Below the pieces are notes generated by a model that made no database searches, had not been told where the DNA came from, and saw only the letters and a program-made list of their open reading frames with translations. DNA of 64,000 nucleotides from Smithella sp. (GTDB lineage Bacteria; Desulfobacterota; Syntrophia; Syntrophales; Smithellaceae), in NCBI GenBank assembly GCA_035524255.1, contig DATKPG010000007.1, positions 3,270 to 67,269 on the forward strand, read 5' to 3'. Both the position numbers and the translations under genes were made by a program. Positions 14,385 to 37,365 of this stretch are shown piece by piece (positions within the stretch are counted from its first letter, which is position 1; the number at the start of each line of letters is the position of its first letter).

Positions 14385-14421
14385 TGTAAAAACATTGATC
14401 AATGAAATAAGCTGATATTTG

Positions 14422-14450
14422 TTGACTTTTTACGCGGAAATAATTAAAAT
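14422..14450 (+). promoter_or_regulatory. Sigma-70-type promoter for the pilin array
   Basis: TTGACT (14422-14427), a 17-nt spacer, then TAAAAT (14445-14450), about 80 nt upstream of the first pilin ATG. No comparable motif was seen in front of pilin copies 2 and 3. Confidence 0.55.
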
Positions 14451-14529
14451 AAAAGATATTAATTTTGTAAATGAAGTCTTAATAAGTGATCACCAAAAAA
14501 ACTAACGGGCATGAAGAAAGGAGAGGAAT

Positions 14530-14907
14530 ATGTTAAAAAATGAGAAAGGTTTTACGTTGATTGAAATCATCGCGGTTCTGGTTATTTTAGGAATTTTGGC
14601 CGCGGTAGCCGTTCCGAGGTATTTAAGTCTGCTGGACCAGTCAAGAATCTCCGCGGCGCAGGGCGCTATTGCTGAATTAAAATCACGCGCGAGCGCTGAA
14701 TACGGCAAATTGCTTCTGTCGGGCTCCGGTGCGGATCCCGGAGAAGCCGCGGTTCAGGCTTCAATAAGCACGGATGTCGGCAGTGATTTTTCGGGTATTT
14801 CAATGGCCGCCAGCGGCAGTAATATCGCCTTTACAATTACAACTGTGAAAGGCGCCACTTTAAGCACAAACGCTACCGGAACCTGGTATTATCCGACCCA
14901 GAGTTAA
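14530..14907 (+). CDS. Type IV major pilin, copy 1 (class III signal peptide, N-methyl-Phe type)
   Basis: 125 aa with leader MLKNEKG|FTLIEIIAVLVILGILAAVAVP (Gly-1, Phe+1, Glu+5). RBS AAAGGAGAGG. No Cys; C-terminal ...WYYPTQS. Confidence 0.92.
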   Translation: MLKNEKGFTLIEIIAVLVILGILAAVAVPRYLSLLDQSRISAAQGAIAELKSRASAEYGKLLLSGSGADPGEAAVQASISTDVGSDFSGISMAASGSNIAFTITTVKGATLSTNATGTWYYPTQS

Positions 14908-14926
14908 GTAAATAAGCATTTATAGA

Positions 14927-14960
14927 AAATAGCGCGAATAGAAATTCGCGCTATTTTTTT
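14927..14960 (+). terminator. Rho-independent terminator after pilin copy 1
   Basis: Stem AAATAGCGCGAAT/ATTCGCGCTATTT with AGAA loop, followed by a T-run to 14960. Confidence 0.8.
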
Positions 14961-15011
14961 GCCGGCATTTCAATACACCTTGAAGCGTTTCTTTAAGAAA
15001 AAGGAGGAAAA

Positions 15012-15389
15012 ATGTTAAAAAATGAAAAAGGTTTCACGTTGATTGAAATCATCGCGGTTCTGGTTATTTTGGGAATTTTGGCTGCGGTGGCTGTTCCGAG
15101 GTATTTAAGTCTGCTGGACCAGTCAAGAATCTCCGCGGCGCAGGGCGCTATTGCTGAATTAAAATCACGCGCGAGCGCTGAATACGGCAAATTGCTTCTG
15201 TCGGGCTCCGGAGCGGATCCCGGAGAAGCCGCGGTTCAGGCTTCAATAAGCACGGATGTCGGCAGTGATTTTTCGGGCATTTCCATGGCCGCCAGCGGCA
15301 GTAATATCGCGTTTACTATTACCACGGTGAAAGGCGCCTCTTTAAGCACAAACGCCACCGGAACCTGGTATTATCCGACCCAGAGCTAA
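15012..15389 (+). CDS. Type IV major pilin, copy 2
   Basis: 125 aa, identical to copy 1 except residue 110 (Ser vs Thr). RBS AAGGAGG. Confidence 0.92.
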   Translation: MLKNEKGFTLIEIIAVLVILGILAAVAVPRYLSLLDQSRISAAQGAIAELKSRASAEYGKLLLSGSGADPGEAAVQASISTDVGSDFSGISMAASGSNIAFTITTVKGASLSTNATGTWYYPTQS

Positions 15390-15406
15390 ATAAAACCATT
15401 CAGGAG

Positions 15407-15435
15407 AAAAAAGCGTGATAACTTCACGCTTTTTC
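15407..15435 (+). terminator. Weaker terminator-like hairpin after pilin copy 2
   Basis: Stem AAAAGCGTGA/TCACGCTTTT with TAACT loop. The T-run is short (5) and is followed by CCCC. Confidence 0.55.
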
Positions 15436-15488
15436 CCCTGCTGATTTTATAGTTCATTAGAAGCATTTTTTAGCGACCAGGAGGAAAA

Positions 15489-15866
15489 ATGTTAAAAAAT
15501 GAAAAAGGCTTCACGTTAATTGAAATCATCGCGGTTCTCGTTGTTTTGGGAATTTTGGCCGCGGTGGCCGTTCCGAGGTATTTGAGTCTGCTGGATCAGT
15601 CAAGAATCGCGGCGGCACAGGGCGCCATTGCGGAATTTAAATCGCGCGCGAGCGGCGTGTATGCCAACCTGCTTCTGTCGGGCGCCGGTGCGGATCCCGG
15701 AGAAGCCGCGGTTCAGGCTTCAATCAATACGGATGTCGGCAGTGATTTTGCGGGTATTTCAATATCCGCCAGCGGCAGCAATATCGTGTTCACAATTACA
15801 ACCGTGAAAGGTTTCTCTTTAAGCACAAATGCCACCGGAACCTGGTATTATCCGATACAAAGTTAA
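15489..15866 (+). CDS. Type IV major pilin, copy 3 (diverged paralog)
   Basis: 125 aa with the same leader and length. It carries about a dozen substitutions (e.g. AEFKSRASGVYANLLLSGAG, ISISASGSNIVF, KGFSL, YYPIQS). RBS AGGAGG. Confidence 0.92.
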   Translation: MLKNEKGFTLIEIIAVLVVLGILAAVAVPRYLSLLDQSRIAAAQGAIAEFKSRASGVYANLLLSGAGADPGEAAVQASINTDVGSDFAGISISASGSNIVFTITTVKGFSLSTNATGTWYYPIQS

Positions 15867-15892
15867 ATTATTATAATGCACTTATGGAAAAG

Positions 15893-15923
15893 TAGCGTGA
15901 ATAGAAATTCGCGCTATTTTTTT
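15893..15923. terminator. Terminator between the convergent pilin array and the GT-C gene (possibly bidirectional)
   Basis: Stem TAGCGTGAAT/ATTCGCGCTA with AGAA loop, then T7. The same hairpin family follows copy 1. It sits 9 nt from the stop of the minus-strand gene at 15932. Confidence 0.75.
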
Positions 15924-15931
15924 GCTTGTTT

Positions 15932-18055
15932 CTAATTAAGATAGGAACATCTTGCGGCAATCGATAAATAATTTTCAATTCTGGGAACGTAAACGTGCAA
16001 ATTTTCATCCTTATTCAATTGCCGGATATATTCTTTTAAATTTAAAGAACCTTTTAAATACAGCAGGAAGCGAATTTCCTGACTTTGCATTTTTGCGTCT
16101 TTGATTTTTCCGTATAATTCAATGAGGGCCAGATTGGCATAAGCATTTTGAGGGGCAAGCTCTCTTACGGATTTCCAGTAATAGATGGCCTGGGCATAAT
16201 TATTTTTCAGGCGGCAGACCTCGGCCATAATTTCCAGCGCGTTTAGTGAATCCGGATCTTTCGCGAGAATTTTTTGGGCGAAATTTTTAGCGGCATCAAT
16301 TTTACCGTCTTTTAACAGAATAAAACTGTATAAATCCATTAGTTTGGAATTATCGGGATATTCTCTGAATTTATTTTCGATAATTTGTCCCGCCTGGCTG
16401 ATTTGATCATGACGGAGCTTTATCTTGGCCATATAGATATAATTGGGAATATGTTGAGGATTTGTTTTAGAGGATTTTATAAAGTAGTCCATGGCCAGAT
16501 CATCCTGCCTTTGGGTAAAATATAAAAGGCCCAGATTATATTCCTGAAGCGATAAAGATATATTGCTTCCTCCAAAATTATTCAGGCTCATCGCTTTTTC
16601 ATACTCTTTTAATCCTTTTTCATTTTCATGATAATTGCAGTAAATGCTGCCCAGCATGGCATGCGGCCTGCTCAATCCCGGAGACTTTTCAGCGTTATCA
16701 AACCACAGGGAAAAATCGTCGGAGAATATTTTATTGCGGCTGTAGGTAATGTCGCCCAGGCCGAATATGATGATGGCTATTCCAAAGGCGACGATAATCT
16801 GCATCAGCTTTTTGTAGGAGAAGTAATCAATAACATAAATGATAAACTCCGTGCAGGGAACAAACAAAAGCATGGACGGCAGGTAATTGCGGTAGTCGTA
16901 TATTAACTCCAGATTAAAAATGGAGCCTTCAATAATATGATTCAAAAAAAAGAAAATAACGCAAAAAGACGAGAGCGGGCGCTTACGGGATATATAAAGG
17001 GCAAATCCGATGATTAAAAATATCGTTAAAATTGACGGAATGGTCGTCCAGGGATGGATTAAGGAGCGGGAGACTTCAAAATCGTAGAGAAAAGTCAAGC
17101 GCGAACTGACCGGATAAAAAAGCAGTGAAAGATAAAACAGGATGACGCGGGGTTCGGTTAAAAGCCTTTGCATCATCGTGAAGCCGCGTATTTTATATCC
17201 GGCTGATAAATCGCGGAAACCCAGGAAATTGGAAAAACCGCTTGTATAAATAAATCCAATCACTAAAATCAGCAACAAAGGCAGCGCGGAAATCCTGATA
17301 CATTTTTTAATGTTTTCTTTAGTTACGCCCTGAATTAAGAATAAATCGAATAATAGAATACTGACCGGAAGCATCGCGGCGTTTTCTTTGGAAAGCACTC
17401 CGGCTAAACCCGCAGCCACGCACAGGATAAAAAACAGGATGGAAGAAGTTTTAGTTTTAGATAGTTGCGCGGATGTCCGGCCTTTGAGATAAAAATACAT
17501 GGACATGATATAAAACAGTCCAGCCATGGACGTATATCTCTGCACTATGTAGGTAACACAGGTAACGTGAAGGGGATTTAATGCCCATAAAAACGAAGCC
17601 AGCAGCGACACGGGGTAGGCAATATTTTGATATTGATCTTTCAGCCGCGGAAGCTTCAGCATGTTGTAAATAAATAAAAAAAGAAATACTGAAGTGAGGT
17701 AATGGATGATAAAATTAACCACATGAAATCCGAAGACATCCATTCCGCCCAATTTATAATTCAGGGCGAAGCTCAAAACCGGCAGGGGCCGCCATAATCT
17801 GTTCTGGCTAATATCATGTACATATTGTTTTATTTCCGGCCAGGAAAATGATTTTATCTGAGTATGCGGATTATTAACGATGTTGCCGAAATCATCAAAA
17901 TGCCAGTCGCCGTGAAAACTGTTGGAGTAAATAATAAATAATGCCGCGAACAGCGCGATAAACGTGAAAATATATTTATGGGATTCAGGGAAGTTTATAT
18001 TAACAGGCGGGGCAAAACCATTTTCTTCGGATGGCATGATAATCTCCTGACTCAT
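15932..18055 (-). CDS. TMTC/PMT-like GT-C-fold membrane glycosyltransferase fused to C-terminal TPR repeats (paralog type A, copy 1)
   Basis: 707 aa with many hydrophobic helices in the N-terminal ~450 aa. The first-loop motif 'SNSFHGDWHFDDFGNIVNNP' has an acidic DD as in PMT/TMTC loop 1. The C-terminal ~230 aa are TPR-like. Collinear with and clearly alignable to 22201-24288. Confidence 0.7.
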   Translation of the reverse strand: MSQEIIMPSEENGFAPPVNINFPESHKYIFTFIALFAALFIIYSNSFHGDWHFDDFGNIVNNPHTQIKSFSWPEIKQYVHDISQNRLWRPLPVLSFALNYKLGGMDVFGFHVVNFIIHYLTSVFLFLFIYNMLKLPRLKDQYQNIAYPVSLLASFLWALNPLHVTCVTYIVQRYTSMAGLFYIMSMYFYLKGRTSAQLSKTKTSSILFFILCVAAGLAGVLSKENAAMLPVSILLFDLFLIQGVTKENIKKCIRISALPLLLILVIGFIYTSGFSNFLGFRDLSAGYKIRGFTMMQRLLTEPRVILFYLSLLFYPVSSRLTFLYDFEVSRSLIHPWTTIPSILTIFLIIGFALYISRKRPLSSFCVIFFFLNHIIEGSIFNLELIYDYRNYLPSMLLFVPCTEFIIYVIDYFSYKKLMQIIVAFGIAIIIFGLGDITYSRNKIFSDDFSLWFDNAEKSPGLSRPHAMLGSIYCNYHENEKGLKEYEKAMSLNNFGGSNISLSLQEYNLGLLYFTQRQDDLAMDYFIKSSKTNPQHIPNYIYMAKIKLRHDQISQAGQIIENKFREYPDNSKLMDLYSFILLKDGKIDAAKNFAQKILAKDPDSLNALEIMAEVCRLKNNYAQAIYYWKSVRELAPQNAYANLALIELYGKIKDAKMQSQEIRFLLYLKGSLNLKEYIRQLNKDENLHVYVPRIENYLSIAARCSYLN

Positions 18056-18152
18056 GAAATATCGTTTGGACTGTATGTTTTTCTTTCATGATGATCCGTC
18101 CCCGGAAAGAGGGGCCGCGATCGAGGTACAGTTACATAATTTCATTCGAAAA

Positions 18153-20249
18153 TCAACGGCAGTATTTTCTTTCTTTAGCCCATGCAAGCGCTGTGCAGTT
18201 TCCCATTTTACACGCCATCCGCGCGTCATAACAGCCGGGCTCTTTGTCGCCCAGATTAAAGTAAGCGCCCCCCCGGTTATTATAGGCGTCGGCATAGTCC
18301 GGTTTCAGACGGATGGCCTCGTTAAAATCCTTAACGGCGCTCTGATACCGGCGAAGTTTAAAGTAAACGCCCCCCCGGTTGTTAAAAGCTTCGGCATAGT
18401 CCGGTTTGAGGCGCAAGGCCTGGTTGAAATCATCAATGGCGCTTTGAAACCGGCTCATTTTGAAATACGCGATTCCCCTGTTGTAGAAAAAACCCGCGTC
18501 ATTTGGTTTCAGGCGCAGGGCTTCATTAAAATCATTAATGGCATCCTGGTACCGGAAAAGACTTTGGTTGGCAGCCCCCCTGATATTATAGAAATCCGCG
18601 TCAGCCGGCTTAAGTCGTATGGCCTGATTATAATCTTTCAGGGCAAGTTCGTATTGGCCTAGCTTTGCGTAAGCAATCCCTCTATCCGAGTAGTAAGAAG
18701 GATCGTCCGGCCTTAAATGTATCGCTTTACTAAAATAATCCACGGCCTTTTGGTTCAAACCGAGTTTGATATGGATAATTCCCAGATTGTAATAAGCCTC
18801 GGCAAAATCAGGATTCAGGCGGATCGCCACATGATAGTCTGCAATGGCAGGCTTGTACTGGTCCAGCGCGGCATAAGAATTTGCCCTGTTGTTGTAGAAA
18901 AGAGCATTGTCCTGTATCAGGACAATGGCTTTATTATAATGATCAATGGCCTCTTTTATTTTTCCATCGGTAAAGAGGGCCAGACCTAAATTGTTATGCG
19001 CCAGAGCGTTATTCTTTGTTATCCGCAAATTATAATTCCAAAGCTTGATGCTGTTTTGCCAGTAAGAGCACTGCTGCCAGGTTATACATGACAAAACGGC
19101 AATGAAAAGCGCTCCCAGTGGAAATAAAATCTTTTTGCGCAGATTTTGGTGTGTGAAGAAAAGGGGGAAGCCCCACGCAAGCATTACGGCAATACCTATT
19201 GCGGGCAGATAATGGTAGCGGTTGGCCATGGCCTGTTCGCCTGATTGAACGATGCCGATAACCGGCAGAAGGGTTATCGCGTACCACAGCCATCCCACAA
19301 AAAGATACGGCCGACGTTTAACCGCCGCGATAACCAAAACGCTGATAACGATAATCAGAAGCGCGGCTCCAAGGAATTGCCCCGGTGAAATATAAGCAGG
19401 ATACGGATAGAAAACGGCAAGATCGCGGGGCCATAATGTTTTCTCCAGATAAGATACAAAAGAAACAGACGCGTTGGCGATCCGCAAACTAAAAGGAAAA
19501 TGTTTTACGGATGGATTGTACTGCGTATAAATCGTGATGACGGAAAAAAGCGCCGACAGGATAAAGAAGGGTATTTTTTCTTTCAGTTGCCATGAAAAAC
19601 AATGGCCGTCCCCAAACTCAAAACGTTTCAGCGGCCAATAATCCAGAAGGATCATCACAACGGGCAGGGTGACAACCATGGGCTTGCTCATAAGCGCGCA
19701 CGCAAAGGACATCAAAACCGGCAGATATCTTCTGGTGATGGGTTTTTCCGTGTAATAGACATACAGGCACAAAGTCAGCATCCAGAAAAAGGCGCTTAAG
19801 ACGTCTTTACGCTCGGCTATCCAGGCAACCGATTCCACATGCATAGGATGCACGGCGAAAAACGCGGCGACAAACGCGCTTTTCCAGATCGTTCCTGTCA
19901 TGCGGCAAAATAGCCAGAAGAGTAATAGCGTGCTCAATATATGCAGGATAAGATTGGTGATATGATAGCCGCCGGCGTTTAGACCGAATAGCTGATGATC
20001 CAGCATGAGTGACAGCCATATCAGAGGATGCCATAACGAATCGGCATACGTTGTGGCAAACGCCCAGCAAATTCCGGAAAGTGTTATCCCGGACTGGATA
20101 TGGCTGTTGTCAGTTACATAAAGCGGATCATCGAAATTGATAAAGTCATAAAGATTGACCTGCCAGAAAACGGCAAAGGTGATAACGGTCAACGACAGAT
20201 AAACGATTAGTTTCTGTCTGTCGGAACTTATATTTATCCTGCTTAACAT
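18153..20249 (-). CDS. TMTC/PMT-like GT-C-fold membrane glycosyltransferase with long TPR array and Cys-rich C-terminal tail (paralog type B, copy 1)
   Basis: 698 aa with loop-1 motif 'WQVNLYDFINFDDPLYVTDNSHIQSG' and a polytopic N-domain. About 8 TPRs ('A..DYN.AI.L.P..A.AYNNRG.AY'). Tail 'GCYDARMACKMGNCTALAWAKERKYCR'. Confidence 0.7.
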   Translation of the reverse strand: MLSRINISSDRQKLIVYLSLTVITFAVFWQVNLYDFINFDDPLYVTDNSHIQSGITLSGICWAFATTYADSLWHPLIWLSLMLDHQLFGLNAGGYHITNLILHILSTLLLFWLFCRMTGTIWKSAFVAAFFAVHPMHVESVAWIAERKDVLSAFFWMLTLCLYVYYTEKPITRRYLPVLMSFACALMSKPMVVTLPVVMILLDYWPLKRFEFGDGHCFSWQLKEKIPFFILSALFSVITIYTQYNPSVKHFPFSLRIANASVSFVSYLEKTLWPRDLAVFYPYPAYISPGQFLGAALLIIVISVLVIAAVKRRPYLFVGWLWYAITLLPVIGIVQSGEQAMANRYHYLPAIGIAVMLAWGFPLFFTHQNLRKKILFPLGALFIAVLSCITWQQCSYWQNSIKLWNYNLRITKNNALAHNNLGLALFTDGKIKEAIDHYNKAIVLIQDNALFYNNRANSYAALDQYKPAIADYHVAIRLNPDFAEAYYNLGIIHIKLGLNQKAVDYFSKAIHLRPDDPSYYSDRGIAYAKLGQYELALKDYNQAIRLKPADADFYNIRGAANQSLFRYQDAINDFNEALRLKPNDAGFFYNRGIAYFKMSRFQSAIDDFNQALRLKPDYAEAFNNRGGVYFKLRRYQSAVKDFNEAIRLKPDYADAYNNRGGAYFNLGDKEPGCYDARMACKMGNCTALAWAKERKYCR

Positions 20250-20316
20250 AATCGAATTCAGTTTCCCTTATAATAATGTCCCGCATCCCATGCTGCACGT
20301 TAAACCCTGAACCGGT

Positions 20317-22158
20317 TTAACGGCAGAGGCCTTTAACTTTCGCGGCTTCCAGCGTTTTGCAATTTCCCAGTTTACACGCCAATTGCGCGTCATAACAGCC
20401 CTGTATTTTATCGCCCCGGTTTAAGTAAGATTCTCCCCGGCCGTTGTAAGCGCAGGCATTGTCCGGATTCAGTCGGATCGTTTTATTAAAATCATCAACG
20501 GCGCTTTGATACCGGTGAAGGCTATTGTAAACGGTTCCCCTTTTGCAGTAGGCATCGGCGTAAACCGGTTTCAGAGCAATGGCTTTATTGTAATCTTCAA
20601 TGGCCTGTTGAACCTGCCCCGTGAAAGCATAAGCATCTCCCCTGAAGGCGTAGGAATCCGCGTAGTCCGGTTTCAGAGCTATGGCTTTATTAAAGTCCGT
20701 AAGCGCCGGTTGATATCGGCCGAGCTGGGTGTACGCTCCGCCCCTGTTGTTGTATAAAACATAACCCACGTTGTTTCGCACCGTATCCGGCATCAGGCGG
20801 ATGGCTTCGCTGTAATGATACACAGCTTCTTCGATTTTGCCTTCACGGGCAAAAGCCGGAGCGATGTTGTTATGCGCGAGATAATTATTCTGTGTCACCC
20901 GCAGGGCATGGTTAAAGAGCGTGATGCTGTCCCTCCAATAACCGCATTGCCGCCACGCCATCAATGACAACAGGCCGATGAAAATCAATCCCGCCGGGAA
21001 TAAAATCCTTTTGCGCGCGTTTTCGCTTTTAAAAAAAAGCGGTATGCCCCACGCGAGCATTACGGCAATGCCGATAGAAGGCAGATATTGATAGCGGTCG
21101 GCTCCTGCGAAGCCTCCCACCTGAAGGATTCCGATGACCGGCAGAAGCGTTATCGCGTACCACAGCCATCCTACAAAAAGATACGGCAGGCGTCTCCTCA
21201 TCATAATGACGGCGGCGCTGATAACCAGAATCCCAAGGGCGGCGCCTGTGACCTGCCAGTGGGGAAGTTGTTCAGAAAATGGATAGAAAATTGTCAAATC
21301 ATAAGGCCATAATGTTTTCTCCAGATAGGTCATCAAAGAAACAGGCATGTTAGCCAGACGCGAAGCCAGGGGAAAAACTTTTACAGATTGACTGTCCGGA
21401 GAATAAAGTGTGATGATAATAACGGCTGACGACAAGATCAAAAAAGGTATTTTTTCCCATAGCGGCCATAATGAAACTTTAACCGGCAAAATTTCCTTTA
21501 AATTGTTTTCGGTTTTTTTTGCTTCAAAACGTCCAAGCGGCCAGTAATCCAGAAGAAGCATAACAACGGGCAGGGTGACAACCATGGGCTTGCTCATAAG
21601 GGCGCAGGCAAAGGAAATCACAACCGGCAGATATCTTCTGAGGAGGGGTTTTTCCGTGTAGTAGACATAAAGGCACAAAGTCAGCATCCAGAAAAAAGCG
21701 CTTAATACATCTTTGCGCTCGGCAATCCACGCGACCGATTCCACATGAAGCGGGTGAAGCGCGAAGAGCGCGGCGACAAAAGCGCTCTTATATATCGCTT
21801 GGGTCATGCGGTTAAAAAGCCAGAAGAGCAAAAGCGCGCTGAAAATATGCAGGATAAGGTTGGTGATATGATAGCCGCCTGCATTTGGGCCTGCCAGTTT
21901 ATAATCCAGCATAAAAGACATCCACACCAGAGGATGCCATAAATCGAAATACTTTGTGCCAAACGCCCAGCGAATACTGTCCGGCGTTATTCCGGACTTA
22001 ATATGGCTGTTCCCCGTTACATAAACCTGATCGTCGAGATTAACAAAGTCATAAAGATTTACCTGCCAGAAAACGGCAAGCGTAATAATCGTTAAAGCGA
22101 TATAAATAAACAGAGTGTTTGTCTGATGATCAGAGCCGATATTTATCTTCTTTAACAT
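20317..22158 (-). CDS. TMTC/PMT-like GT-C-fold membrane glycosyltransferase with TPRs and Cys-rich tail (paralog type B, copy 2)
   Basis: 613 aa with loop-1 'WQVNLYDFVNLDDQVYVTGNSHIKSG', collinear with 18153-20249 but with fewer TPRs. Tail 'GCYDAQLACKLGNCKTLEAAKVKGLCR'. Confidence 0.7.
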   Translation of the reverse strand: MLKKINIGSDHQTNTLFIYIALTIITLAVFWQVNLYDFVNLDDQVYVTGNSHIKSGITPDSIRWAFGTKYFDLWHPLVWMSFMLDYKLAGPNAGGYHITNLILHIFSALLLFWLFNRMTQAIYKSAFVAALFALHPLHVESVAWIAERKDVLSAFFWMLTLCLYVYYTEKPLLRRYLPVVISFACALMSKPMVVTLPVVMLLLDYWPLGRFEAKKTENNLKEILPVKVSLWPLWEKIPFLILSSAVIIITLYSPDSQSVKVFPLASRLANMPVSLMTYLEKTLWPYDLTIFYPFSEQLPHWQVTGAALGILVISAAVIMMRRRLPYLFVGWLWYAITLLPVIGILQVGGFAGADRYQYLPSIGIAVMLAWGIPLFFKSENARKRILFPAGLIFIGLLSLMAWRQCGYWRDSITLFNHALRVTQNNYLAHNNIAPAFAREGKIEEAVYHYSEAIRLMPDTVRNNVGYVLYNNRGGAYTQLGRYQPALTDFNKAIALKPDYADSYAFRGDAYAFTGQVQQAIEDYNKAIALKPVYADAYCKRGTVYNSLHRYQSAVDDFNKTIRLNPDNACAYNGRGESYLNRGDKIQGCYDAQLACKLGNCKTLEAAKVKGLCR

Positions 22159-22200
22159 AGACAGTTTTAGTTCCTCTGATTTTGGAGAAAAAAGCCCGAA

Positions 22201-24288: not shown

Positions 24289-24313
24289 GTGTTCGCCTGA
24301 AAATAATTATGAA

Positions 24314-25249: not shown

Positions 25250-25339
25250 GGATGCCTTCGCTCTCTTCGCATTATTTGTATATATTGAACTCCGCAGAAT
25301 TTTTTACAAGCATCAATCCGGCTCTGTTAGCCTGTTCTA

Positions 25340-26140: not shown

Positions 26141-26157
26141 ATCTCCATCCGGCGCGT

Positions 26158-27995: not shown

Positions 27996-28002
27996 AAGTC
28001 AC

Positions 28003-30146: not shown

Positions 30147-31732
30147 TTTATTTTACCCAGTGTTTTTTTATGGTTGAATTTATAACGGGTGCCGCAGGAG
30201 GGGCATTCGAATTTTTTATTGAGTTGATAACCGCAGGCGCACATCCAGCCCTTCTGGAGGGCGGGATTGCCTATCATTAAAGCGTGATCGGGAACATCCT
30301 TTGTAACGACGGCGCCGGCGGCGATAAAAGCATAACTTCCGATAGTGTGTCCGCAGACGATGGTTGAATTGGCGCCAAGGGACGCGCCCTTTTTGACCGA
30401 TGTGGGCCTGATCTCATCCATCCGGCGAATTTCGGAGCGCGGATTTATCACATTGGTAAAGACGGCCGAGGGTCCGCAAAATACAAAGTCTTCAAGCGTT
30501 ACGCCCTTATAGACCGAAACGTTATTTTGAATTTTACAGCCGTTACCGATGACGGCGTCGGGGCCGATCACAACATTCTGGCCGATCGAGCAGTTTTTGC
30601 CGATGCGTGAACCGGAAATGACGTGTGAATAATGCCATATCTTTGTTCCCGCGCCGATTTCGACGTCATCGTCGATTTCCGACGTCGGATGAACCGATAC
30701 AGAATCATCACCGGTTTTATCAAGAGCGCCGTTTTGCAGCCTTATTCTCGTCGCGTTTTCGTTTAAAGAATGCTGGGCGGCATTGAGAACTTTAAGCACC
30801 CGCAATCCTTCCTTGCCATTCGTTACAGGTTGTTTTTTCCCCGCGATGCAGTCAAGAAAATGCTGGCATTCCACCTTCAGGGGTTCCGCGTAAGGCACAG
30901 ACACTTTTTCCGGCACTCCGCGAGCCGGTATGGGAAGATTATTTTCCCAGTTGACGTGATGAGGATAGACGAGCAGTTTTTCTTCCCAGGGAAGCGTGTC
31001 GTCAAAAACAGCCATTTTCTGATCTCCGACAATCACCAGTTTTTGATCTTTAAAGGGGTGAAGCCAGGACACAAAAACATGCGCTTTGAGGCCGGAAGAA
31101 AATTCCAGATGGGTGGTGGTGACATCGGCTATTTTCTTATGCAGGTAATAACCGCCTGTGGCCAGGACACTTTCCGGTTCTTCGTCCGCGAGAGCAAGAA
31201 TCATCGATATATCGTGCGGCGCGAACGACCATAGAATGTTCTCTTCTCTTCTGATTTTACCGAGGTTGAGTCTGTGGGAATAAATATAATTGATGCGCCC
31301 TAAATCGCCCGCGGATGCCATTTGCTTGATTTTTATAAAAGCCGGATGATACTGGAGGAGATGTCCGACCATCAATATCAACTTATGTTTCGCGGCCAGG
31401 GCAATCAGTTCTTCCGCGTCTTTCTCGGTCAGCGTCATCGGTTTTTCCACAAAAACATGTTTGCCGGACAGCAGAGCTTCTCTCGCCTGTAAAAAATGAG
31501 TTTCCGCGGGGGTGGCGATGACGATTCCATCGATGTCTTTGCGGGAAATTACATCTTTGATAGACGTTCCGGTGTCGCAGGAGGGATAGAGCGTTTTGAT
31601 TTGTTGCAACGCCTGCGCGTTCTTATCGATGACAGCCTTTAACGAACCCAGTTCAAAAAAATTCCGGATTAAATTTTTCCCCCAGTAGCCCGCGCCGGCA
31701 ACGGCAATATTTTGTTTTGTTTTTTTCGTCAT
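30143..31732 (-). CDS. Fusion: Gfo/Idh/MocA NAD(P) sugar oxidoreductase + left-handed beta-helix (hexapeptide) N-acetyltransferase + C-terminal 4-Cys ribbon
   Basis: 529 aa. N-terminus '[17 protein letters not shown]...VFVEKPMTL' is Gfo/Idh/MocA-like. Residues ~350-490 show hexapeptide periodicity ('[49 protein letters not shown]'). The tail '[22 protein letters not shown]' has CxC...CxxC. Confidence 0.8.
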
Positions 31733-31756
31733 TTTAAGCTCTTCCCCCGGGCGTGT

Positions 31757-32857
31757 TTAAGATTTGTAAAGCCGTTCGTTATCCTGAATATCCATCCACA
31801 TGGCAAACAGAAGCGACTGAAAGCTGCTGGTAAACAGAAAGAAAAAAGCAAGCATGGTGGCCGGTGAAACGGAGCCGCCGGAGATCATGATGGAAATTAT
31901 TTTACAGGCGTAGGGTATTGTAAAAATACCTATGAAAAAGGAAAAATGATAAAGCAAAAAAAGCGGATGAAAGTCACGGAAAAGATACTTTATCCACAGC
32001 CTTTTGAAAAAAGATTTAAAAAGCAGCCATGCAATGCGGGGAATCACCTTATGCACTTTCATTTTGGACGTTTCGCCGATGTTGTAAACCGGTTTTATTT
32101 TAACTTCCTTCAGGGTGCAGAAGGCTATATTTAATTTGACGAGCATATCATTGGGCATGCCGTACCGGGGATAAATATCATGGATCGTAATCGCGCTTAA
32201 TGCGGAAAGGGAAATGGCGGTATAACCGGTTTGAGTGTCGGACACGTGCCAGAAACCGGAAGCAATTTTGGTCAATATGGACAAAATTGAATTGCCGAAG
32301 AAGCGGGTTTTGGGCATCACAAGCCTCGCGCCGCCGTGAATAAGACGGTTCCCTTTTACATAATCAATATCTTCGGTCAGAACGGGTACGCAAATCGATT
32401 TTAACTCAGCCGGATCCATTTGACCGTCACCCGCCATAACGGCCGTGCAATCGATTGCGTGATCCAGGCACCATTTGTAGCCGCGGGCGATTGCCGCGCC
32501 CACGCCTCCGTTTTTCAGATTATTGATTAAAATGACGCGATCGGAATCAGGATTTTTATTGGCTATTTCCGAAGGGATATAATAGCCCATGTCCGTTTGC
32601 TGTTTTTCTTTGAGCATATTTTCCGCGCGATCATACTTGCTTTGGCAGGCAATCCCCTCGTTATTATTAAGAATTGATTGAACGGGCCCCTGCCTACTGA
32701 TATAATCCAGAACCACCGTGGCTGTATTATCGCCGGAACAATCGTTGACAACGATTACGCGATCGACAAAATCAGGCATGGTTTCCAAAACCTGCCGGAT
32801 TTGTTTTTCTTCATTATACGCGGGAACGACAACGGCAACAGTTTTATTAAGTAACAT
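31757..32857 (-). CDS. Membrane-anchored GT2 (GT-A) glycosyltransferase, polyprenyl-phosphate-sugar synthase-like architecture
   Basis: 366 aa with 'VAVVVPAYNEEKQI', 'VIVVNDCSGDNT' and 'MAGDGQMDP' (DxD-type), plus C-terminal hydrophobic helices ('LFLLYHFSFFIGIFTIPYACKIISIMI', 'MLAFFFLFTSSFQSLLFAMWM'). RBS GGGAG. First gene of the minus-strand block. Confidence 0.75.
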   Translation of the reverse strand: MLLNKTVAVVVPAYNEEKQIRQVLETMPDFVDRVIVVNDCSGDNTATVVLDYISRQGPVQSILNNNEGIACQSKYDRAENMLKEKQQTDMGYYIPSEIANKNPDSDRVILINNLKNGGVGAAIARGYKWCLDHAIDCTAVMAGDGQMDPAELKSICVPVLTEDIDYVKGNRLIHGGARLVMPKTRFFGNSILSILTKIASGFWHVSDTQTGYTAISLSALSAITIHDIYPRYGMPNDMLVKLNIAFCTLKEVKIKPVYNIGETSKMKVHKVIPRIAWLLFKSFFKRLWIKYLFRDFHPLFLLYHFSFFIGIFTIPYACKIISIMISGGSVSPATMLAFFFLFTSSFQSLLFAMWMDIQDNERLYKS

Positions 32858-33207
32858 CGAATACGGCTCCCATTTTCAGGCGTGTATGCAACTTACTATT
32901 TTTATGATCATTTGTCCAAAAAAATTTCACGATTATCTTTCTTTAAGGGATTGATATTCAACTTTACGGGTATTATATTAAACCGGCGTTCCAAAGGTGG
33001 AGGCGGCAAGTAATCGTAAATCGGGCAACCGGCCCCCGGCCTTGCGCGGGTGCCATTATGAGCCCGGGGTGGCCTGTAGACGATGAAATATCATCGAAAA
33101 ATGTCCTTTGAACAGATGGCGGAGTTGCCGCAAATCTATGGGCGCGTTAAAATGAGCCTCTGCTTTGGAGTGGAGTATTTGAAAAAAATGGTTAAAAATT
33201 AAATATT

Positions 33208-33239
33208 TTGTAACTTTTTTTTCAAAAAAGTTGTATAAT
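33208..33239 (+). promoter_or_regulatory. Possible promoter of the minor-pilin operon
   Basis: Perfect -10 TATAAT (33234-33239) immediately preceded by TG. The only -35-like hexamer, TTGTAA (33208-33213), sits at a non-optimal 20-nt spacing. Confidence 0.3.
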
Positions 33240-33301
33240 AACGTATCAAGAAAAAATGTAGTGCTTGTCCTTATCAAAAAGAGATTGGAATTGAGACCGG
33301 T

Positions 33302-33778
33302 ATGATAAGAAGAAGACAAATCGTTAAAAACAGACTGAAAAATAATAGTGGTTTCACAATGATTGAGACTATTGCCGTAATGGTCATTCTCATCATTTTA
33401 GCCGCCATCGCCGTCACCCGCGGCCTGTCCACGCAAAATGATCTTATTCCTCAGGCGGATACCGTGAAAACGCACCTGAGATTTGCCGAGATGAAAGCGT
33501 TGAATGATGATGTCAATACCTGGAGCGTGGCTTTTACACCCACTAACTATACCCTGTCCTGCACGGGTTCAAACTGCCCTACAAAGGCAATACAACTGCC
33601 GTCTGAAAGTTCCAACACCCATACTTTCCCAAGCGATGTTACGGTAAATACGGCTGCGAACGTTACTTTTGATAGTTGGGGGAGCCCCGGCGGTAGCAAT
33701 GTGGTCATCAATCTTGTGCAGGGCTCTCAGACCATTCCCATTACTATTGCCGCAAATACAGGATATATAACGCCATGA
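33302..33778 (+). CDS. Minor pilin / pseudopilin (GspH/FimT-like size class)
   Basis: 158 aa with prepilin leader MIRRRQIVKNRLKNNSG|FTMIETIAVMVILIILAAIAV (Gly-1, Phe+1, Glu+5). Confidence 0.85.
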   Translation: MIRRRQIVKNRLKNNSGFTMIETIAVMVILIILAAIAVTRGLSTQNDLIPQADTVKTHLRFAEMKALNDDVNTWSVAFTPTNYTLSCTGSNCPTKAIQLPSESSNTHTFPSDVTVNTAANVTFDSWGSPGGSNVVINLVQGSQTIPITIAANTGYITP

Positions 33779-34686
33779 AAACAATGAAAAATATTTTAGA
33801 GCGCGGGTTCACTCTGATAGAAGTGATCATTACCCTTGTCGCGATCGCGCTTGTCGCGGCCATGATGGCAGTCTATTTCGGAACATCAATTGAGCAAAGC
33901 TCTTCACCCATTGCCAAATTAAAAGCGGCAGAAAACCTGAATAAGATTATGGAAAAAATAACTGCCAACTATAATAATACTCCCGCGACCTGGAGCCCCA
34001 GCACCGCCTACACGTTGAGTTCCAATACGGATCCCCCCACCGTCGTTCTTCCCACGGAGGCCAATAGAAACGGAGTTCAGTATATTTGCACAACGCAGGG
34101 TACCAGCGGCGCCACTGAACCCACGTGGCCCATAACGGTCGGTTCTACGGTAAACGATGGCGGTGTAGTATGGACTTTCAGCGGCCCCACGCCGCCAAAT
34201 CTTTGGACGTCGGGTGCGTCATATACCTTAAATCAGATTATTTATCCTGCCAACGGGTATCAGTATATTTGCACCGTCGCCGGAACCAGCGGCACCACTG
34301 AACCCACGTGGCCTACAACGATAGGTTCAACAATTACCGAAACCACAGGGTCCACTCCCAAGGTGCAATGGAAATGCTACGGTCACCAGCCGCTGACTGC
34401 CTTGCAGACCAGAATCGGCGCGGAAGTAACGGGGGGGCAGGATTATACGCAGACCTTTAACGGCGTTTCCATAAGCTATCGCGTGATTCAGAACAGGTTC
34501 ATCACATTCGATGCCGGTGCGAACATCACGGAAGATGACACTTGCACGTCGAGTTCATGCAACATGGTAATATCCGGAGTGAATACTAACGTATATGGGA
34601 GATATCTCAAGGTTACTATTGGACTGCCGCTCACGGCATCTCCCAGAACGACGGATACCCTGACGACTTTATTTGTAAGGCGGTGA
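33775..34686 (+). CDS. Minor pilin with two internal carbohydrate-binding-like repeats
   Basis: 303 aa with leader MKTMKNILERG|FTLIEVIITLVAIALVAA. Two ~60-aa repeats end in 'YICT..GTSG.TEPTWP...GST'. Start overlaps the upstream stop (ATGA). Confidence 0.85.
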   Translation: MKTMKNILERGFTLIEVIITLVAIALVAAMMAVYFGTSIEQSSSPIAKLKAAENLNKIMEKITANYNNTPATWSPSTAYTLSSNTDPPTVVLPTEANRNGVQYICTTQGTSGATEPTWPITVGSTVNDGGVVWTFSGPTPPNLWTSGASYTLNQIIYPANGYQYICTVAGTSGTTEPTWPTTIGSTITETTGSTPKVQWKCYGHQPLTALQTRIGAEVTGGQDYTQTFNGVSISYRVIQNRFITFDAGANITEDDTCTSSSCNMVISGVNTNVYGRYLKVTIGLPLTASPRTTDTLTTLFVRR

Positions 34687-34689
34687 AAA

Positions 34690-35244
34690 ATGGTTCGTGA
34701 AATTACCGGGCGCCTGTTGGATGAGAAGGCATTCACACTGATTGAAATGATTGTCTCCCTGGTCCTGATCAGCATTTTTGCCACGGCTGCGGGGTTGGGC
34801 ATTGCTAAAATCAGTCAAGGCTATATTTTCGCGAAACAGGACACGGAAACCCAGCAGAAAGCGCAGGTCGCCATGGCCAGAATGGTCAAGGAACTGGGCT
34901 GGGCTGCGCCGCAGACCAGTACGGCAACCGCCATCACGGCAGCCACGGCATCTTCGGTTACTTACACACGGCCGCAATCCATAGGTTCAAGCACATTTGT
35001 GACAAATACTCTGACTATCTCCGGCTCTTCAGTCCTACTAAGCGGAAACGCCAGCGGAACCCTCGTTAACAATGTTGTAAGCGGCTCTTCCTCATTTGCT
35101 TATTATGATACCAACGGCGCGACGCTGGCCACGCCGGTGGCGCTTTCCAGAATCCGGCGGATTGATATCACGCTAAGTCTGACCGGCGCGGACAATTTAA
35201 CATCCCAGTTTACAAACAGCGTGTGGATAAATGAATCCTATTAG
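34690..35244 (+). CDS. Minor pilin (PilW/GspJ-like)
   Basis: 184 aa with '...LLDEKA|FTLIEMIVSLVLISIFATAAG'. It has Ala rather than Gly at -1, with Phe+1 and Glu+5 present. Confidence 0.75.
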   Translation: MVREITGRLLDEKAFTLIEMIVSLVLISIFATAAGLGIAKISQGYIFAKQDTETQQKAQVAMARMVKELGWAAPQTSTATAITAATASSVTYTRPQSIGSSTFVTNTLTISGSSVLLSGNASGTLVNNVVSGSSSFAYYDTNGATLATPVALSRIRRIDITLSLTGADNLTSQFTNSVWINESY

Positions 35245-35262
35245 CCATTAAGGGAGAATAAT

Positions 35263-37299
35263 ATGTGCCTTAAAAATAACAAAGGGAGTATCCTGATTAC
35301 ACTCATCGTTACCATACTTATTATGGCGGTGCTTGGTCTGGGCATCTACGGTCTGTTTTCATCCTCCACCATCAGTGAATTTCTGTCCAACAGAAACGAT
35401 AACGCGTATCAACTCGCGAAAGCCGGCATTCGTTACGCCGTCAACACCAACGGCGCCAACCTGGGCAACTTTTTTATGCCCGATGCCAAGCATGTATTTA
35501 ACCTTGCCAGAAACGGCCAGGTCATTACATCCACGGGTATCGTGAATGCGGGCACTTTTCTGGAGGCCAGGAGAGTGCTTACCTATACTCTTACGGGAGC
35601 ACTATACGATCCTCGTATTCATCAGAATGATCTTGTCGTCCCAACCAATAACAATATTGTCTCCAATCCAACGGGCGCGATCGCGATCAGCGGAACAACG
35701 ATCACGCTGGGCGGAAGCCAAAGCCCCGGCGTCTCTCAAAGTTATGCCGCCATCTGGTATAACGGGAATAATGCCAATGCCAGCTGCAACTCAGGCAACT
35801 GCTTATTCGGCACGGGCCTGCGAGCGTATTTTGAATTCCAGTTTCCCGGTACTACGGGTTCGGGCGATGGATTTACTTTCGCGATTATGAGCGCGCTGAC
35901 CAATACAAATACCCGCGTAGGGGGGTTTTCTAAAAATGACTTCCCCGGCACTTATACGCGTACAGACGGCACCCAAACATCGGTTGCCGGCGGTGAATTA
36001 CAGGGGTATGCCGGACCGGGCAATACGTATCTGTCGAATGGAACCGATGGCCAGGGGCTCCGGCCGCCGAAAATGGCCCTGCAGTTTGATACCTTTACAA
36101 ATTTGACCGGTTCACCCATATATCTCGCGGGGACCAGGAATGATCCGTCCTGTACGGCGACTTACGGCGATTATGTGGCCCTCCAGTTCTGGGGCGATTA
36201 TTTAACCGGCCAAAATACGCCAGCGCTTAATTATTCCGGAGGCGGGACGCGTATTTTCCCCTTGAGCAGTTTTGACGACAATATCCATGGCGCATATCCG
36301 GCAAGCGCCTATGGATCGTCCACCTCCTGTGTCAACGCGACGGCAAACGTAACCACAACACCCGCGACATCAATATCATGTCCGCCTGTAAATGGTCTCG
36401 GCGCGATGTGTTATTTACTGGAAGATCATCAGGTTCGTAGTTGCAGGATAGAAATTACCCGTCCGACGAGCGTTTCAAACAGCGGCGCCTGCGCGGGTAT
36501 GTACGCGTATCAAATCAATGTCTGGATCGAAGTTACAGGCAGTCTTTCCGGTCTTACGTTAAGCCATCTCCAGGATGTGCTTGTGCCGTTTGTCGATCCT
36601 AATACTCCCGCTATTTCTAAAAAAATCAGCCAGACGGTCTGCTTTACCTCGGCAGACAACTCTAACCTGGCAACCATCATTTGGGGTTTTACGCAAGGCA
36701 CGGGCGATGCCGTTCAGCAGGTGCCGATTACAAACTCCGATGTCTTTTTCCCGAATGCGGGGTCGTCAACATGCACTTATTCAATTAACCCCTCGAACGC
36801 GTATTTTCCGGTAGCGGGCGGATCAGGAACCGTTGCCGTGTCGTCTTCAAGCAATGTTTGTTACTGGGCGGTATCGAGCCTTGCCAGCTGGATCACCATT
36901 ACCTCAACTCCGTTATTCGGCTTAGGCAATGGAACGGTCAGCTATACCGTCGCCGCCAACAATACAGGAGCTATCCAGATCGGTGTTATGAACATAGCCG
37001 GACAGACCTTCACCGTCACACAATGCGGGTCTCTCTCCAGTTACACGATAACGAATAGTACAGGAGCGACAATTTACAGGCAGTCAGGAGGGAATTGTTC
37101 AAACGGAAATGCTATCTCTAACGGCAGCACGTATACACTATCTTCCAGTGGTACGGTTACGTTTTATCAAACCAGGGGCGGCGGTAACAGCTGCCAGGGC
37201 AATACAATTACCGTAACCGGCGCTCAGGCTCAGGCCGCGGATACTAATTGCGACGGTAACGTACAGATAAATAGTTCCTGGAGTTTGGTAGACAAATAA
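35263..37299 (+). CDS. Large PilX/GspK/MshQ-like pilus-associated protein with lectin-like (ConA-fold-like) and BACON/Ig-like modules; candidate tip adhesin
   Basis: 678 aa. The N-terminus MCLKNNKG|SILITLIVTILIMAVLGLG is a pilin-like helix lacking Glu+5, as in GspK/PilX. 'YFEFQFPGTTGSGDGFTFAI...ALQFDTFTN...NDP' is legume-lectin-like. 'CTYSINPS...GGSGTVAVSSSSNVCYWAVSS.ASWITIT...GNGTVSYTVAANNTG...GQTFTVTQ' follows. Confidence 0.7.
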   Translation: MCLKNNKGSILITLIVTILIMAVLGLGIYGLFSSSTISEFLSNRNDNAYQLAKAGIRYAVNTNGANLGNFFMPDAKHVFNLARNGQVITSTGIVNAGTFLEARRVLTYTLTGALYDPRIHQNDLVVPTNNNIVSNPTGAIAISGTTITLGGSQSPGVSQSYAAIWYNGNNANASCNSGNCLFGTGLRAYFEFQFPGTTGSGDGFTFAIMSALTNTNTRVGGFSKNDFPGTYTRTDGTQTSVAGGELQGYAGPGNTYLSNGTDGQGLRPPKMALQFDTFTNLTGSPIYLAGTRNDPSCTATYGDYVALQFWGDYLTGQNTPALNYSGGGTRIFPLSSFDDNIHGAYPASAYGSSTSCVNATANVTTTPATSISCPPVNGLGAMCYLLEDHQVRSCRIEITRPTSVSNSGACAGMYAYQINVWIEVTGSLSGLTLSHLQDVLVPFVDPNTPAISKKISQTVCFTSADNSNLATIIWGFTQGTGDAVQQVPITNSDVFFPNAGSSTCTYSINPSNAYFPVAGGSGTVAVSSSSNVCYWAVSSLASWITITSTPLFGLGNGTVSYTVAANNTGAIQIGVMNIAGQTFTVTQCGSLSSYTITNSTGATIYRQSGGNCSNGNAISNGSTYTLSSSGTVTFYQTRGGGNSCQGNTITVTGAQAQAADTNCDGNVQINSSWSLVDK

Positions 37300-37323
37300 T
37301 AAAAAAATCAAGCTTTACACAAA

Positions 37324-37365
37324 AGAAGTCCGGCCGGGTCAGAAAGGCCCGGCCGGACTTCTTTA
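37324..37365 (+). terminator. Terminator after the minor-pilin operon
   Basis: 15-bp GC-rich stem AGAAGTCCGGCCGGG/CCCGGCCGGACTTCT (37324-37338/37348-37362) with a 9-nt loop, followed by a short TTT. Confidence 0.65.

Follow-up and report, generated by a model that had tools for sequence, protein, structure and literature searches.

We examined a 64,000-nucleotide stretch of DNA from Smithella sp. (contig DATKPG010000007.1), hereafter denoted the window, in which a type IV pilus locus is split by a block of genes with predicted roles in periplasmic glycosylation. Three tandem major-pilin genes (14530–15866, plus strand) converge on this block of 12 minus-strand open reading frames (ORFs; 15932–32857), hereafter the island, which lies between them and the minor-pilin operon (33302–37299, plus strand); the operon diverges from it. 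This layout had been described in an earlier note on the same DNA and was confirmed position for position. The island genes are spaced by 7–97 bp, with three 4-nt overlaps (27297–27300, 28980–28983 and 30143–30146). Pilin 3 and the nearest island gene, GTC1, converge across 65 bp; at the opposite end of the island a divergent intergenic region of 444 bp (32858–33301) separates the gene for a family 2 glycosyltransferase (GT2) from the minor-pilin operon. Pfam and NCBIfam searches agree with the gene content previously assigned, i.e. nucleoside diphosphate (NDP)-sugar synthesis and tailoring, a GT4, a membrane-anchored GT2, a flippase-like protein and four proteins with tetratricopeptide repeats (TPRs).

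The four TPR proteins, GTC1 (707 aa; 15932–18055), GTC2 (698 aa; 18153–20249), GTC3 (613 aa; 20317–22158) and GTC4 (695 aa; 22201–24288), are encoded consecutively on the minus strand. In each, a polytopic N-terminal domain of 400–440 residues (~1–440 in GTC1), which resembles the GT-C class of glycosyltransferases and has about 11 transmembrane (TM) helices by hydropathy, is followed by TPR repeats at residues of about 410–670 (468–651 by Pfam in GTC1; ~8 repeats in GTC2), with Pfam scores from 7e-64 (GTC2; TPR_1, 7.2e-64) to about 1e-10 (GTC1 and GTC4). Since the N-terminus is predicted to be cytoplasmic and the number of TM helices is odd, the TPR domain is likely to lie on the periplasmic side. 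Although the four had been treated as one set, they are two pairs of paralogues, GTC1 with GTC4 (67% identity) and GTC2 with GTC3 (59%), the pairs sharing about 25% identity over the membrane domain (BLAST E 9e-21 to 3e-23).

Matches to PMT_2 (PF13231) at residues ~83–202 of GTC2 (22.6 bits) and GTC3 (24.4–25.9 bits) lie close below the gathering cut-off of 26.1 bits, with E-values of 1e-5 to 1e-4 for this region. PF13231 is recorded for many homologues 60–70% identical to GTC3, and a neighbouring TPR-bearing GT-C protein in one related locus (L043) scores 40.4 bits. An Asp-Asp (DD) pair following TM1 (D42-D43 in GTC3; D54-D55 in GTC1), which the predicted topology would place in the first periplasmic loop, is invariant or nearly so in sets of 60, 13 and 55 aligned sequences. 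The sets of 60 and 55 aligned homologues also have invariant loop residues, comprising H-x2-N-x3-H, R148, K190, L-P197 and D204, with further invariant motifs at Y-L-x5-P285 and Y-L-P360; Y278-L279-x5-P285 is present in all 60 sequences. GTC2 and GTC3 read Y-x6-P-[YH]-x6-P, the second proline of which is absent from GTC1 and GTC4.

AlphaFold2 models of the N-terminal domains of GTC3 (residues 1–403; pLDDT 75, pTM 0.79) and GTC1 (residues 1–440; pLDDT 78, pTM 0.81) contain about 11 membrane helices. When either model is compared with the PDB using Foldseek, all matches with a probability of at least 0.9 are GT-C enzymes, the family members retrieved being STT3, PglB, AglB, ArnT (5f15), AftD, DPY19, Pmt1/2 and Pmt4. 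The top ten matches of the GTC3 model are all STT3 or PglB, and the high-probability matches of the GTC1 model are STT3, ArnT, AglB and Pmt4. Searching the PDB with full-length GTC2 recovers TPR proteins only, for example OGT, and is uninformative on the catalytic domain. A tblastn search of 72,556 plasmids with the GT-C domain gave one weak archaeal match and no annotated relative. The earlier identification of four GT-C enzymes is moderately supported by the DD motif, by high-probability structural matches confined to GT-C proteins and, for two of the four, by near-threshold PMT_2 scores, but not by any profile hidden Markov model (HMM) passing its threshold; the evidence that GTC1–4 are divergent GT-C (GT-C_A-like) enzymes carrying a TPR domain, drawn from sequence and predicted structure, is good but not conclusive.

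The other eight island genes, also on the minus strand, encode the putative sugar donor pathway and its membrane components. The nucleotidylyltransferase (232 aa; 27297–27995; NTP_transferase, 9.2e-41) has guanylyltransferases as its top NCBIfam matches, each under its cut-off, and the LegB-like NDP-sugar 4,6-dehydratase (326 aa; 28003–28983; GDP_Man_Dehyd, 1.4e-69) scores 456 bits against the TIGR04180 cut-off of 475. A 529-aa fusion (30143–31732) joins, by Pfam, a GFO/IDH/MocA 3-dehydrogenase-like domain, matching the UDP-GlcNAc 3-dehydrogenase model NF040723 at 148 bits (under cut-off), to a WlbB-like N-acetyltransferase domain, residues 345–517 of which match an acetyltransferase of lipopolysaccharide (LPS) biosynthesis (PDB 3mqg, 1.3e-60). 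The sugar aminotransferase is of the DegT/PseC/ArnB type (380 aa; 26158–27300; DegT_DnrJ_EryC1, 1.3e-117), the PseC, ArnB and LegC models all falling under their cut-offs, and a SAM-dependent methyltransferase (266 aa; 25340–26140; Methyltransf_25, 2.1e-15) is encoded next to it. This set of genes points to a donor predicted to be an N-acetylated, possibly methylated, amino-deoxy-hexose, although only one aminotransferase is present yet both 3-oxidation and 4,6-dehydration routes are represented.

Two further proteins are candidates for loading and moving a lipid-linked sugar. The GT2 (366 aa; 31757–32857; Glycos_transf_2, 5.7e-16, 59 bits) has C-terminal membrane helices (hydrophobic segments at residues 296–353) and weak NCBIfam matches to AglJ, PpgS and dolichyl-phosphate-hexose transferase, by analogy with which it is a candidate polyprenyl-phosphate sugar synthase. 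Its BLAST alignment with Escherichia coli ArnC is confined to the N-terminal nucleotide-binding stretch, and a PDB search returned generic GT2 N-termini only (E about 0.003). The polytopic LPG_synthase_TM (UPF0104) protein (311 aa; 24314–25249; ~8 hydrophobic helices) matches PF03706 at 34.8 bits against a cut-off of 33.4, and its gene keeps its position in related islands. By analogy with known systems it is a candidate flippase for the lipid-linked sugar, and the sole one; GtrA, ArnE/F and MATE proteins are absent. The remaining gene encodes a GT4 of the GT-B fold, a Leloir enzyme (388 aa; 28980–30146; Glycos_transf_1, 3.1e-30).

None of the island genes matched, in Pfam or NCBIfam, an initiating phosphoglycosyltransferase, Wzx/Wzy, an ABC exporter or a Wzy_C oligosaccharyltransferase, and an O-antigen, exopolysaccharide (EPS) or PglL-type route is therefore disfavoured. 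We also considered the island as an O-antigen/EPS cluster and rejected this, since polymerase, exporter, chain-length regulator and initiating phosphoglycosyltransferase are all missing from it. The gene content supports instead the previously proposed lipid-linked, periplasm-facing glycosylation. Elsewhere in the window, a 454-aa ORF with a borderline Glyco_trans_2_3 match (43284–44648) lies beside miaA and is unconnected to the island.

To place the locus among its relatives, GTDB species representatives were searched with a GTC1-type profile, and the best 77 of 318 loci, mostly on contigs of metagenome-assembled genomes (MAGs), were annotated by BLAST against the window proteins and by a prepilin-motif search. 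At the 42 evaluable loci, i.e. those with at least 3 kb on either side of the GT-C gene, a pilin ORF lies near the GTC1/4-type gene within 1 kb in 27, within 3 kb in 33 and within 10 kb in 34. Over 73 kb of control loci the motif search matched nothing; in the window it gave one false match. The link to the pilus that the earlier note had suggested is upheld as more than a peculiarity of this genome. The adjacency spans Smithella, Syntrophales, Desulfobacterales and Desulfatiglandales, at 35–45% identity, and in the last two groups is seen down to about 35–40%. The GTC1/4-type gene and the major-pilin gene are in most cases immediate neighbours, typically 50–200 bp apart. At least 11 relatives have it, as in the window, between the major pilin and the minor-pilin operon.

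What surrounds this pair of genes varies. In L001–L004 (82% identity to GTC3) the same island lies beside a single pilin gene and MshG/MshE, and in L005–L008 (70% identity to GTC3) the pilin has beside it six TPR GT-C genes as well as one GT-C gene of family GT87. One relative (L014; 75% identity to GTC1) has four GT-C genes beside two pilin genes. In another (L013; 63% identity to GTC1, on a 4.78-Mb chromosome) a single GT-C gene stands beside two pilin genes and is followed by a different glycan set, consisting of GT2 and GT4 genes, epimerases and a Polysacc_synt_3 protein. At all four of these identity levels the orthologues adjoin MshG/MshE genes as well as pilins. Sugar genes are lacking altogether in L037, L041, L051, L059, L060 and L062, where the GT-C gene or genes lie directly between major and minor pilins, and in L065–L068 and L079 the pilin gene is directly ahead of the GT-C gene, as pilA is ahead of tfpW in Pseudomonas aeruginosa. 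Across the relatives, islands are thus absent, smaller or composed of different genes, with one to six TPR GT-C genes and in some an extra GT87 gene, while the adjacency to pilin stays. Because this adjacency is kept where sugar genes are often absent, the pilin and the GT-C/TPR gene are the conserved core, and the 17-kb sugar island, which had been taken as a unit, is a lineage-specific filling of a variable slot.

Several further features were noted in these loci. The GT87 gene of L005–L008 (PF09594, 466 aa; about 14354–15754) is located between the six-gene TPR GT-C array and the pilin; a further family of GT-C enzymes has thus been brought in at this position. In L043 the GT-C gene is followed by more sugar genes and another PMT_2/TPR gene. 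A tandem array of six GTC3-type TPR GT-C genes occurs away from any pilin in L012 (4884–15097), flanked on one side by small DUF6160 proteins and on the other by a separate DegT/dehydratase/NTP-transferase/GT2 set; it may represent a parallel system that acts on some other protein. Close GTC1-type homologues are also carried by contigs binned as Actinomycetota, 'beta proteobacterium', 'archaeon' and Ignavibacteriales (L067, L072, L078 and L080). These contigs are short, and their odd taxonomy probably reflects binning errors rather than horizontal transfer.

The candidate substrates are the three major pilins, each of 125 aa, encoded on the plus strand as a tandem array with a 482-bp period (2.8 copies). 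Copy 1 (14530–14907; N_methyl, 6.4e-9) is Cys-free and rich in Ser/Thr; copy 2 (15012–15389) is 99% identical to it, and copy 3 (15489–15866) is 87–88% identical to both. All three have Pfam N_methyl matches and the canonical leader MLKNEKG/FTLIE, and the mature form of copy 1 has 118 residues, with 29% Ser/Thr past residue 50. Composition was compared for 68 pilins encoded beside GT-C/TPR genes, the three of the window included: their mature lengths are 110–138 aa, 57 are Cys-free, and outside the N-terminal helix Ser/Thr make up 26% of residues, against 11% in neighbouring proteins.

The earlier note had pointed to the C-terminal Ser of the three pilins, a cue taken from TfpO/PilO, which belongs to a different enzyme class. 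As only nine of the 68 related pilins end in Ser, a TfpO-like C-terminal acceptor cue was rejected. N-glycosylation at an 'NAT' sequon near the pilin C-terminus was likewise rejected as the main mode, since the Asn is not conserved in close orthologues, where the site reads …STTPSGTW… or …STNAMGTW…; sequon counts in the pilins are unremarkable for Ser/Thr-rich proteins. With a C-terminal Ser rare and the NAT sequon not conserved, O-linkage to internal Ser/Thr residues appears, on the sequences, the more likely mode. The C-terminal motif (S/T)GTW-x-x-P recurs in the GT-C-adjacent pilins of many species (14860–14907 in the window; L016–L092).

With regard to transcription, a sigma-70-like promoter match (TTGACT-17-TAAAAT, 10/12 positions; 14422–14450, plus strand) precedes the array, and a terminator-like hairpin, with an 18-pair stem followed by a T-run (15885–15924, plus strand), lies in the 65 bp across which pilin 3 and GTC1 converge; both are consensus matches only. 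A sigma-54 promoter upstream of the pilins was considered and rejected, as there are fewer matches than in shuffled sequences and none in 14272–14530. In several relatives (L005, L013 and L014) a gene for a sigma-54 activator (Sigma54_activat and HTH_8) is found directly upstream of the pilin genes, between these and the MshG-type gene; the window is without it.

Together, these observations lead us to propose that the MSHA-type type IV pilus encoded here has its own dedicated system for periplasmic O-glycosylation, TfpW-like and of the 'three-component' kind, a reading to which we assign a probability of roughly 0.6. The outlined scheme is based on the gene content, the GT-C-like fold with its DD motif, the TPR domains and the synteny with pilin genes. 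Six activities, namely the nucleotidylyltransferase, the LegB-like 4,6-dehydratase, the 3-dehydrogenase-like domain, the DegT aminotransferase, the WlbB-like acetyltransferase domain and the methyltransferase, would make an N-acetylated, possibly methylated, amino-deoxy-hexose nucleotide in the cytoplasm. The membrane-anchored GT2 would then place the sugar on undecaprenyl phosphate, in the manner of GtrB, ArnC and PpgS; optionally, the GT4 may attach a second sugar. The LPG_synthase_TM protein would flip the lipid-linked sugar to the periplasmic face, where the four GT-C/TPR enzymes, each combining ~11 TM helices with a putatively catalytic Asp-Asp in periplasmic loop 1 and C-terminal TPRs on the periplasmic side, would transfer it from the lipid carrier to Ser/Thr of pilins still anchored in the inner membrane. 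The modified pilin would then be assembled by the Msh machine. The GTC1/4 clade, the constant partner of pilins, is taken as the core pilin-associated type and is the best candidate for the initiating transferase; GTC2/3-type copies, variable in number, probably add further sites or extend the glycan.

A number of points weigh against this proposal. The organism is an uncultured MAG, and the system is known here from its genes alone. No Pfam or NCBIfam glycosyltransferase model scores above threshold for GTC1–4, and GTC1 and GTC4 have no match at all. The Foldseek E-values are weak (0.014 at best), with TM-scores of 0.40–0.48; neither phmmer with the GTC3 N-terminal domain nor an HMM of 13 N-terminal domains matches any PDB sequence even at E ≤ 10; and a family profile aligned to E. 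coli ArnT with hhalign gives a non-significant probability of 0.1 (E 0.5). The assignments of the polyprenyl-phosphate synthase (GT2) and the flippase (LPG_synthase_TM) rest on weak matches and analogy, and the GT4 is unaccounted for in the scheme. With 38,643 cluster representatives at E ≤ 1e-3, the family is very large; at eight of the 42 evaluable GTC1/4-type loci a pilin is missing within 10 kb, a sensor kinase follows the GT-C gene in L049, and GTC3-type paralogues of 60–66% identity lie far from pili (L009–L012), in housekeeping contexts or in pilin-free arrays with their own sugar genes.

The last of these points, the pilin-free loci, the dispersed paralogues and the size of the family, are also what would be expected were the island a general envelope glycosylation system, acting on LPS, another glycan or a broad range of surface or periplasmic proteins and merely parked beside the pilus, with pilin not its dedicated substrate. 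Enzymes of the ArnT and GtrC types, which follow the same three-component logic, do modify lipid A and O-antigen. We nevertheless consider such a role unlikely: the GTC1/4–pilin adjacency is kept between genera and orders even though the presence of sugar genes varies, standalone pilin–GT-C pairs occur without other envelope genes (L065–L068 and L075–L079), TPR domains suit a protein acceptor or partner better than lipid A, and the known pilA-adjacent enzyme of like architecture, TfpW, is pilin-specific.

Still less probable, in our judgement, is a pilus-linked system whose acceptors are the minor pilins or the 678-aa protein encoded after them, i.e. a tip or priming complex, rather than the major pilin. 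The GT-C genes do lie between major and minor pilins, here and in the at least 11 relatives mentioned above, and the island shares its divergent promoter region with the minor-pilin operon. However, the GTC1/4-type gene mostly adjoins the major pilin, it persists in loci that have a pilin and no minor-pilin operon within 10 kb (L065–L068, L075, L077 and L087), and the major pilins are markedly Ser/Thr-rich. That the GT-C/TPR proteins are inactive membrane-anchored TPR scaffolds in the manner of PilF, PilW, TadD or MshN, with the sugar island as unrelated cargo, would accord with their automatic JGI names ('Tfp pilus assembly protein PilF', 'Flp pilus assembly protein TadD') and with the sub-threshold glycosyltransferase HMMs, but is very improbable given that these names come from the TPR region only, that the 400-aa polytopic domain is the best conserved part, with its invariant DD, GT-C-type loop residues and GT-C structural matches, and that sugar-donor genes accompany the proteins in many lineages.

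The closest precedent for the proposed pilin glycosylation is TfpW, the group IV pilin glycosyltransferase of P. aeruginosa Pa5196/PA7 (PA7 also as P. paraeruginosa). This 646-aa GT-C protein has a DDx motif and, following 11 predicted TM helices, a TPR domain at its periplasmic C-terminus; its gene directly follows pilA and is needed for multi-site O-glycosylation of the pilin with D-arabinofuranose, and in P. indica and Kingella denitrificans sugar genes are clustered with pilA-tfpW (bioRxiv 10.1101/2020.04.19.049825). TfpW has already been classed among the 'three-component' extracytoplasmic glycosylation systems. The likeness, which we base on the published description and printed motifs of TfpW and not on a sequence alignment, extends to the ~11-TM GT-C-like domain with DD in its first loop, the large C-terminal TPR domain, the position of the gene directly beside a major pilin gene (GTC1, in the window) and the sugar-synthesis genes clustered alongside in some of the species that carry TfpW. 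By analogy, the island's products may also use a polyprenyl-phosphate-linked monosaccharide and modify several Ser/Thr residues, as TfpW does. Compared, without alignment, with the printed proline-rich motif of periplasmic loop 4 in TfpW, Y-x6-P-F-x7-P, the Y-x6-P portion is invariant here and the remainder differs.

There are also differences from TfpW. The pilus here is MSHA-like, whereas that of TfpW is a PilA-type T4aP; instead of a single enzyme the window has four paralogues from two subfamilies, and relatives have as many as six plus a GT87; the predicted donor is an N-acetylated amino-deoxy-hexose rather than PRPP-derived D-arabinofuranose; an LPG_synthase_TM protein is the flippase candidate; and, whereas tfpW is co-oriented with pilA, in the window and most Smithellaceae loci the GT-C and pilin genes converge. 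The earlier note had presented the system as undescribed, and bacterial TPR-bearing GT-C homologues as having no assigned substrate. The second statement is wrong and the first overstated, as TfpW, which the note cited without recognising its architecture, is a pilA-adjacent GT-C/TPR enzyme that O-glycosylates pilin. The system is most likely a relative of TfpW and so of a known kind, not a new one. What differs is its occurrence with an MSHA-type pilus and in Desulfobacterota, the multiplied paralogues, the predicted amino-sugar donor and the different family of the candidate flippase; no description of such a system in Desulfobacterota was found in the literature searched.

Other three-component systems (GtrA/B/C; ArnC/ArnEF/ArnT; ORF15/MATE/GT-C for pentofuranose, Kelly et al. 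2024; the streptococcal PgfS type) combine, by the same logic, a lipid-phosphate sugar synthase, a flippase and an extracytoplasmic GT-C, for each of which the window has a candidate. Most of them decorate glycans or lipid A, whereas the conserved neighbour here is a pilin gene; in addition, the flippase candidate belongs to a family other than GtrA, ArnE/F or MATE, and the GT-C proteins bear TPRs. With eukaryotic TMTC1–4, of the GT-C/PMT clan, the island proteins have in common an 11-TM N-terminal domain followed by a non-cytoplasmic C-terminal TPR domain (the side being predicted in our case) and a short motif, 'FAVHPIHT' in human TMTC3 and 'FALHPLHVE' in GTC2/3; the TMTC acceptor is a folded adhesion protein, to which the proposed pilin acceptor may be analogous. 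However, DUF1736 (PF08409) gives no match (E ≤ 0.01 for GTC1–4; E ≤ 1 for the 13 N-terminal domains), and the predicted donor is not Dol-P-Man. The label 'TMTC-like', used in the earlier note, is consequently to be read as architecture plus one short motif and not as family membership. PglL of Neisseria and TfpO/PilO of P. aeruginosa 1244 also act on pilin, and tfpO is linked to pilA, but these are Wzy_C-class enzymes that use preassembled oligosaccharides linked to undecaprenyl diphosphate, with an initiating phosphoglycosyltransferase and Wzx, none of which is matched among the 12 island genes or the flanking genes; nor is the C-terminal Ser rule of TfpO conserved in these pilins.

The pilus machinery itself is encoded on the plus strand upstream of the pilins (5131–14271) and is, by its gene content, that of an MSHA-type type IV pilus: its extension ATPase has an MshEN domain, a secretin and an AAA protein of the ExeA/MshM type are encoded, and the major and minor pilins have gene sets of their own. 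In order, the genes encode a PilM/MshI-like assembly protein (609 aa; 5131–6960; weak matches to PilM_2 and to TIGR01175 pilM; syntenic in relatives); two small assembly proteins in the MshJ/K position (177 and 162 aa; 6960–7999), each with one N-terminal TM helix and both kept in related loci, the second with a weak T2SSB match; the secretin (538 aa; 8002–9618; Secretin, 6.6e-50, with Secretin_N and STN); the ExeA/MshM-like AAA_22 ATPase (538 aa; 9693–11309; AAA_22, 5.6e-19; TIGR03015 at 138 bits, under cut-off); the MshE-type extension ATPase (567 aa; 11328–13031; T2SSE, 1.3e-131), with a c-di-GMP-binding MshEN domain (1.9e-18) and an NF053729 c-di-GMP motif at 52.9 bits against a cut-off of 38; and a PilC/MshG-type platform protein (406 aa; 13051–14271) with two copies of T2SSF (2.7e-57). 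Beyond the island, the minor-pilin operon begins with three minor pilins (158, 303 and 184 aa; 33302–35244, plus strand; N_methyl motifs, TIGR02532), which have syntenic homologues in 13 surveyed loci. It ends with the 678-aa protein (35263–37299, plus strand), which has one TM helix (residues 10–28), a weak BACON match and otherwise no family match; its homologues follow the minor pilins in L034, L037, L058, L059 and L062, and it is possibly a tip protein or one in the position of MshQ.

Other features of the window lie outside the pilus locus. Just upstream of it, one minus-strand gene encodes a 929-aa product that contains an invasin D3 domain and six Big_1 repeats (82–2871) and is possibly a further surface adhesin; a second (3365–4855) encodes a fusion of a YkuD L,D-transpeptidase with a Cds6_C/NTF2-like domain. 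Downstream, a 335-aa ORF in which an IS200-like Y1 transposase domain is joined to the C-terminal helix-turn-helix of DnaA (45647–46654) is located among housekeeping genes. The region 56700–60000 has a G+C content of 0.30–0.36, against about 0.46 around it, and holds a KAP-family P-loop NTPase (57190–58449) and a 443-aa ORF without a Pfam match (58513–59844); it looks like a small foreign or defence-type insertion.

The pili of Smithellaceae, Syntrophales and Desulfobacterales are discussed in connection with attachment and interspecies interactions. If pilin is the substrate, glycosylation of the TfpW type is not confined to a few Pseudomonas and Kingella strains, and would be a conserved part of MSHA-type pilus loci in these three groups. 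At least one clade of a family that is mostly unannotated, or named 'tetratricopeptide repeat protein' or 'PilF/TadD', would then have a likely substrate class, and the relatives, with one to six paralogues, with or without GT87 and with swappable sugar islands, provide natural experiments on acceptor choice by GT-C/TPR enzymes. One preprint describes pilus glycosylation in P. aeruginosa as blocking pilus-specific phages (bioRxiv 10.1101/150227); that the variable island content fits a similar diversifying pressure is speculation.

A broader, order-wide reading, which seems to us possible but rather doubtful, is that the pilin–GT-C/TPR module is ancestral in the MSHA-type pili of Syntrophales and Desulfobacterales, and that one to seven paralogous TMTC-like transferases, supplied by interchangeable sugar islands, coat the pili of syntrophs with glycans at multiple sites and in a lineage-specific manner, each TPR domain reading a different pilin surface or a different partly glycosylated intermediate. 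If true, these loci would make the choice of folded-protein acceptors by TMTC-type enzymes tractable in a bacterial model, and the glycans would form an unrecognised layer of surface variation, with possible roles in phage evasion or in partner recognition within syntrophic consortia.

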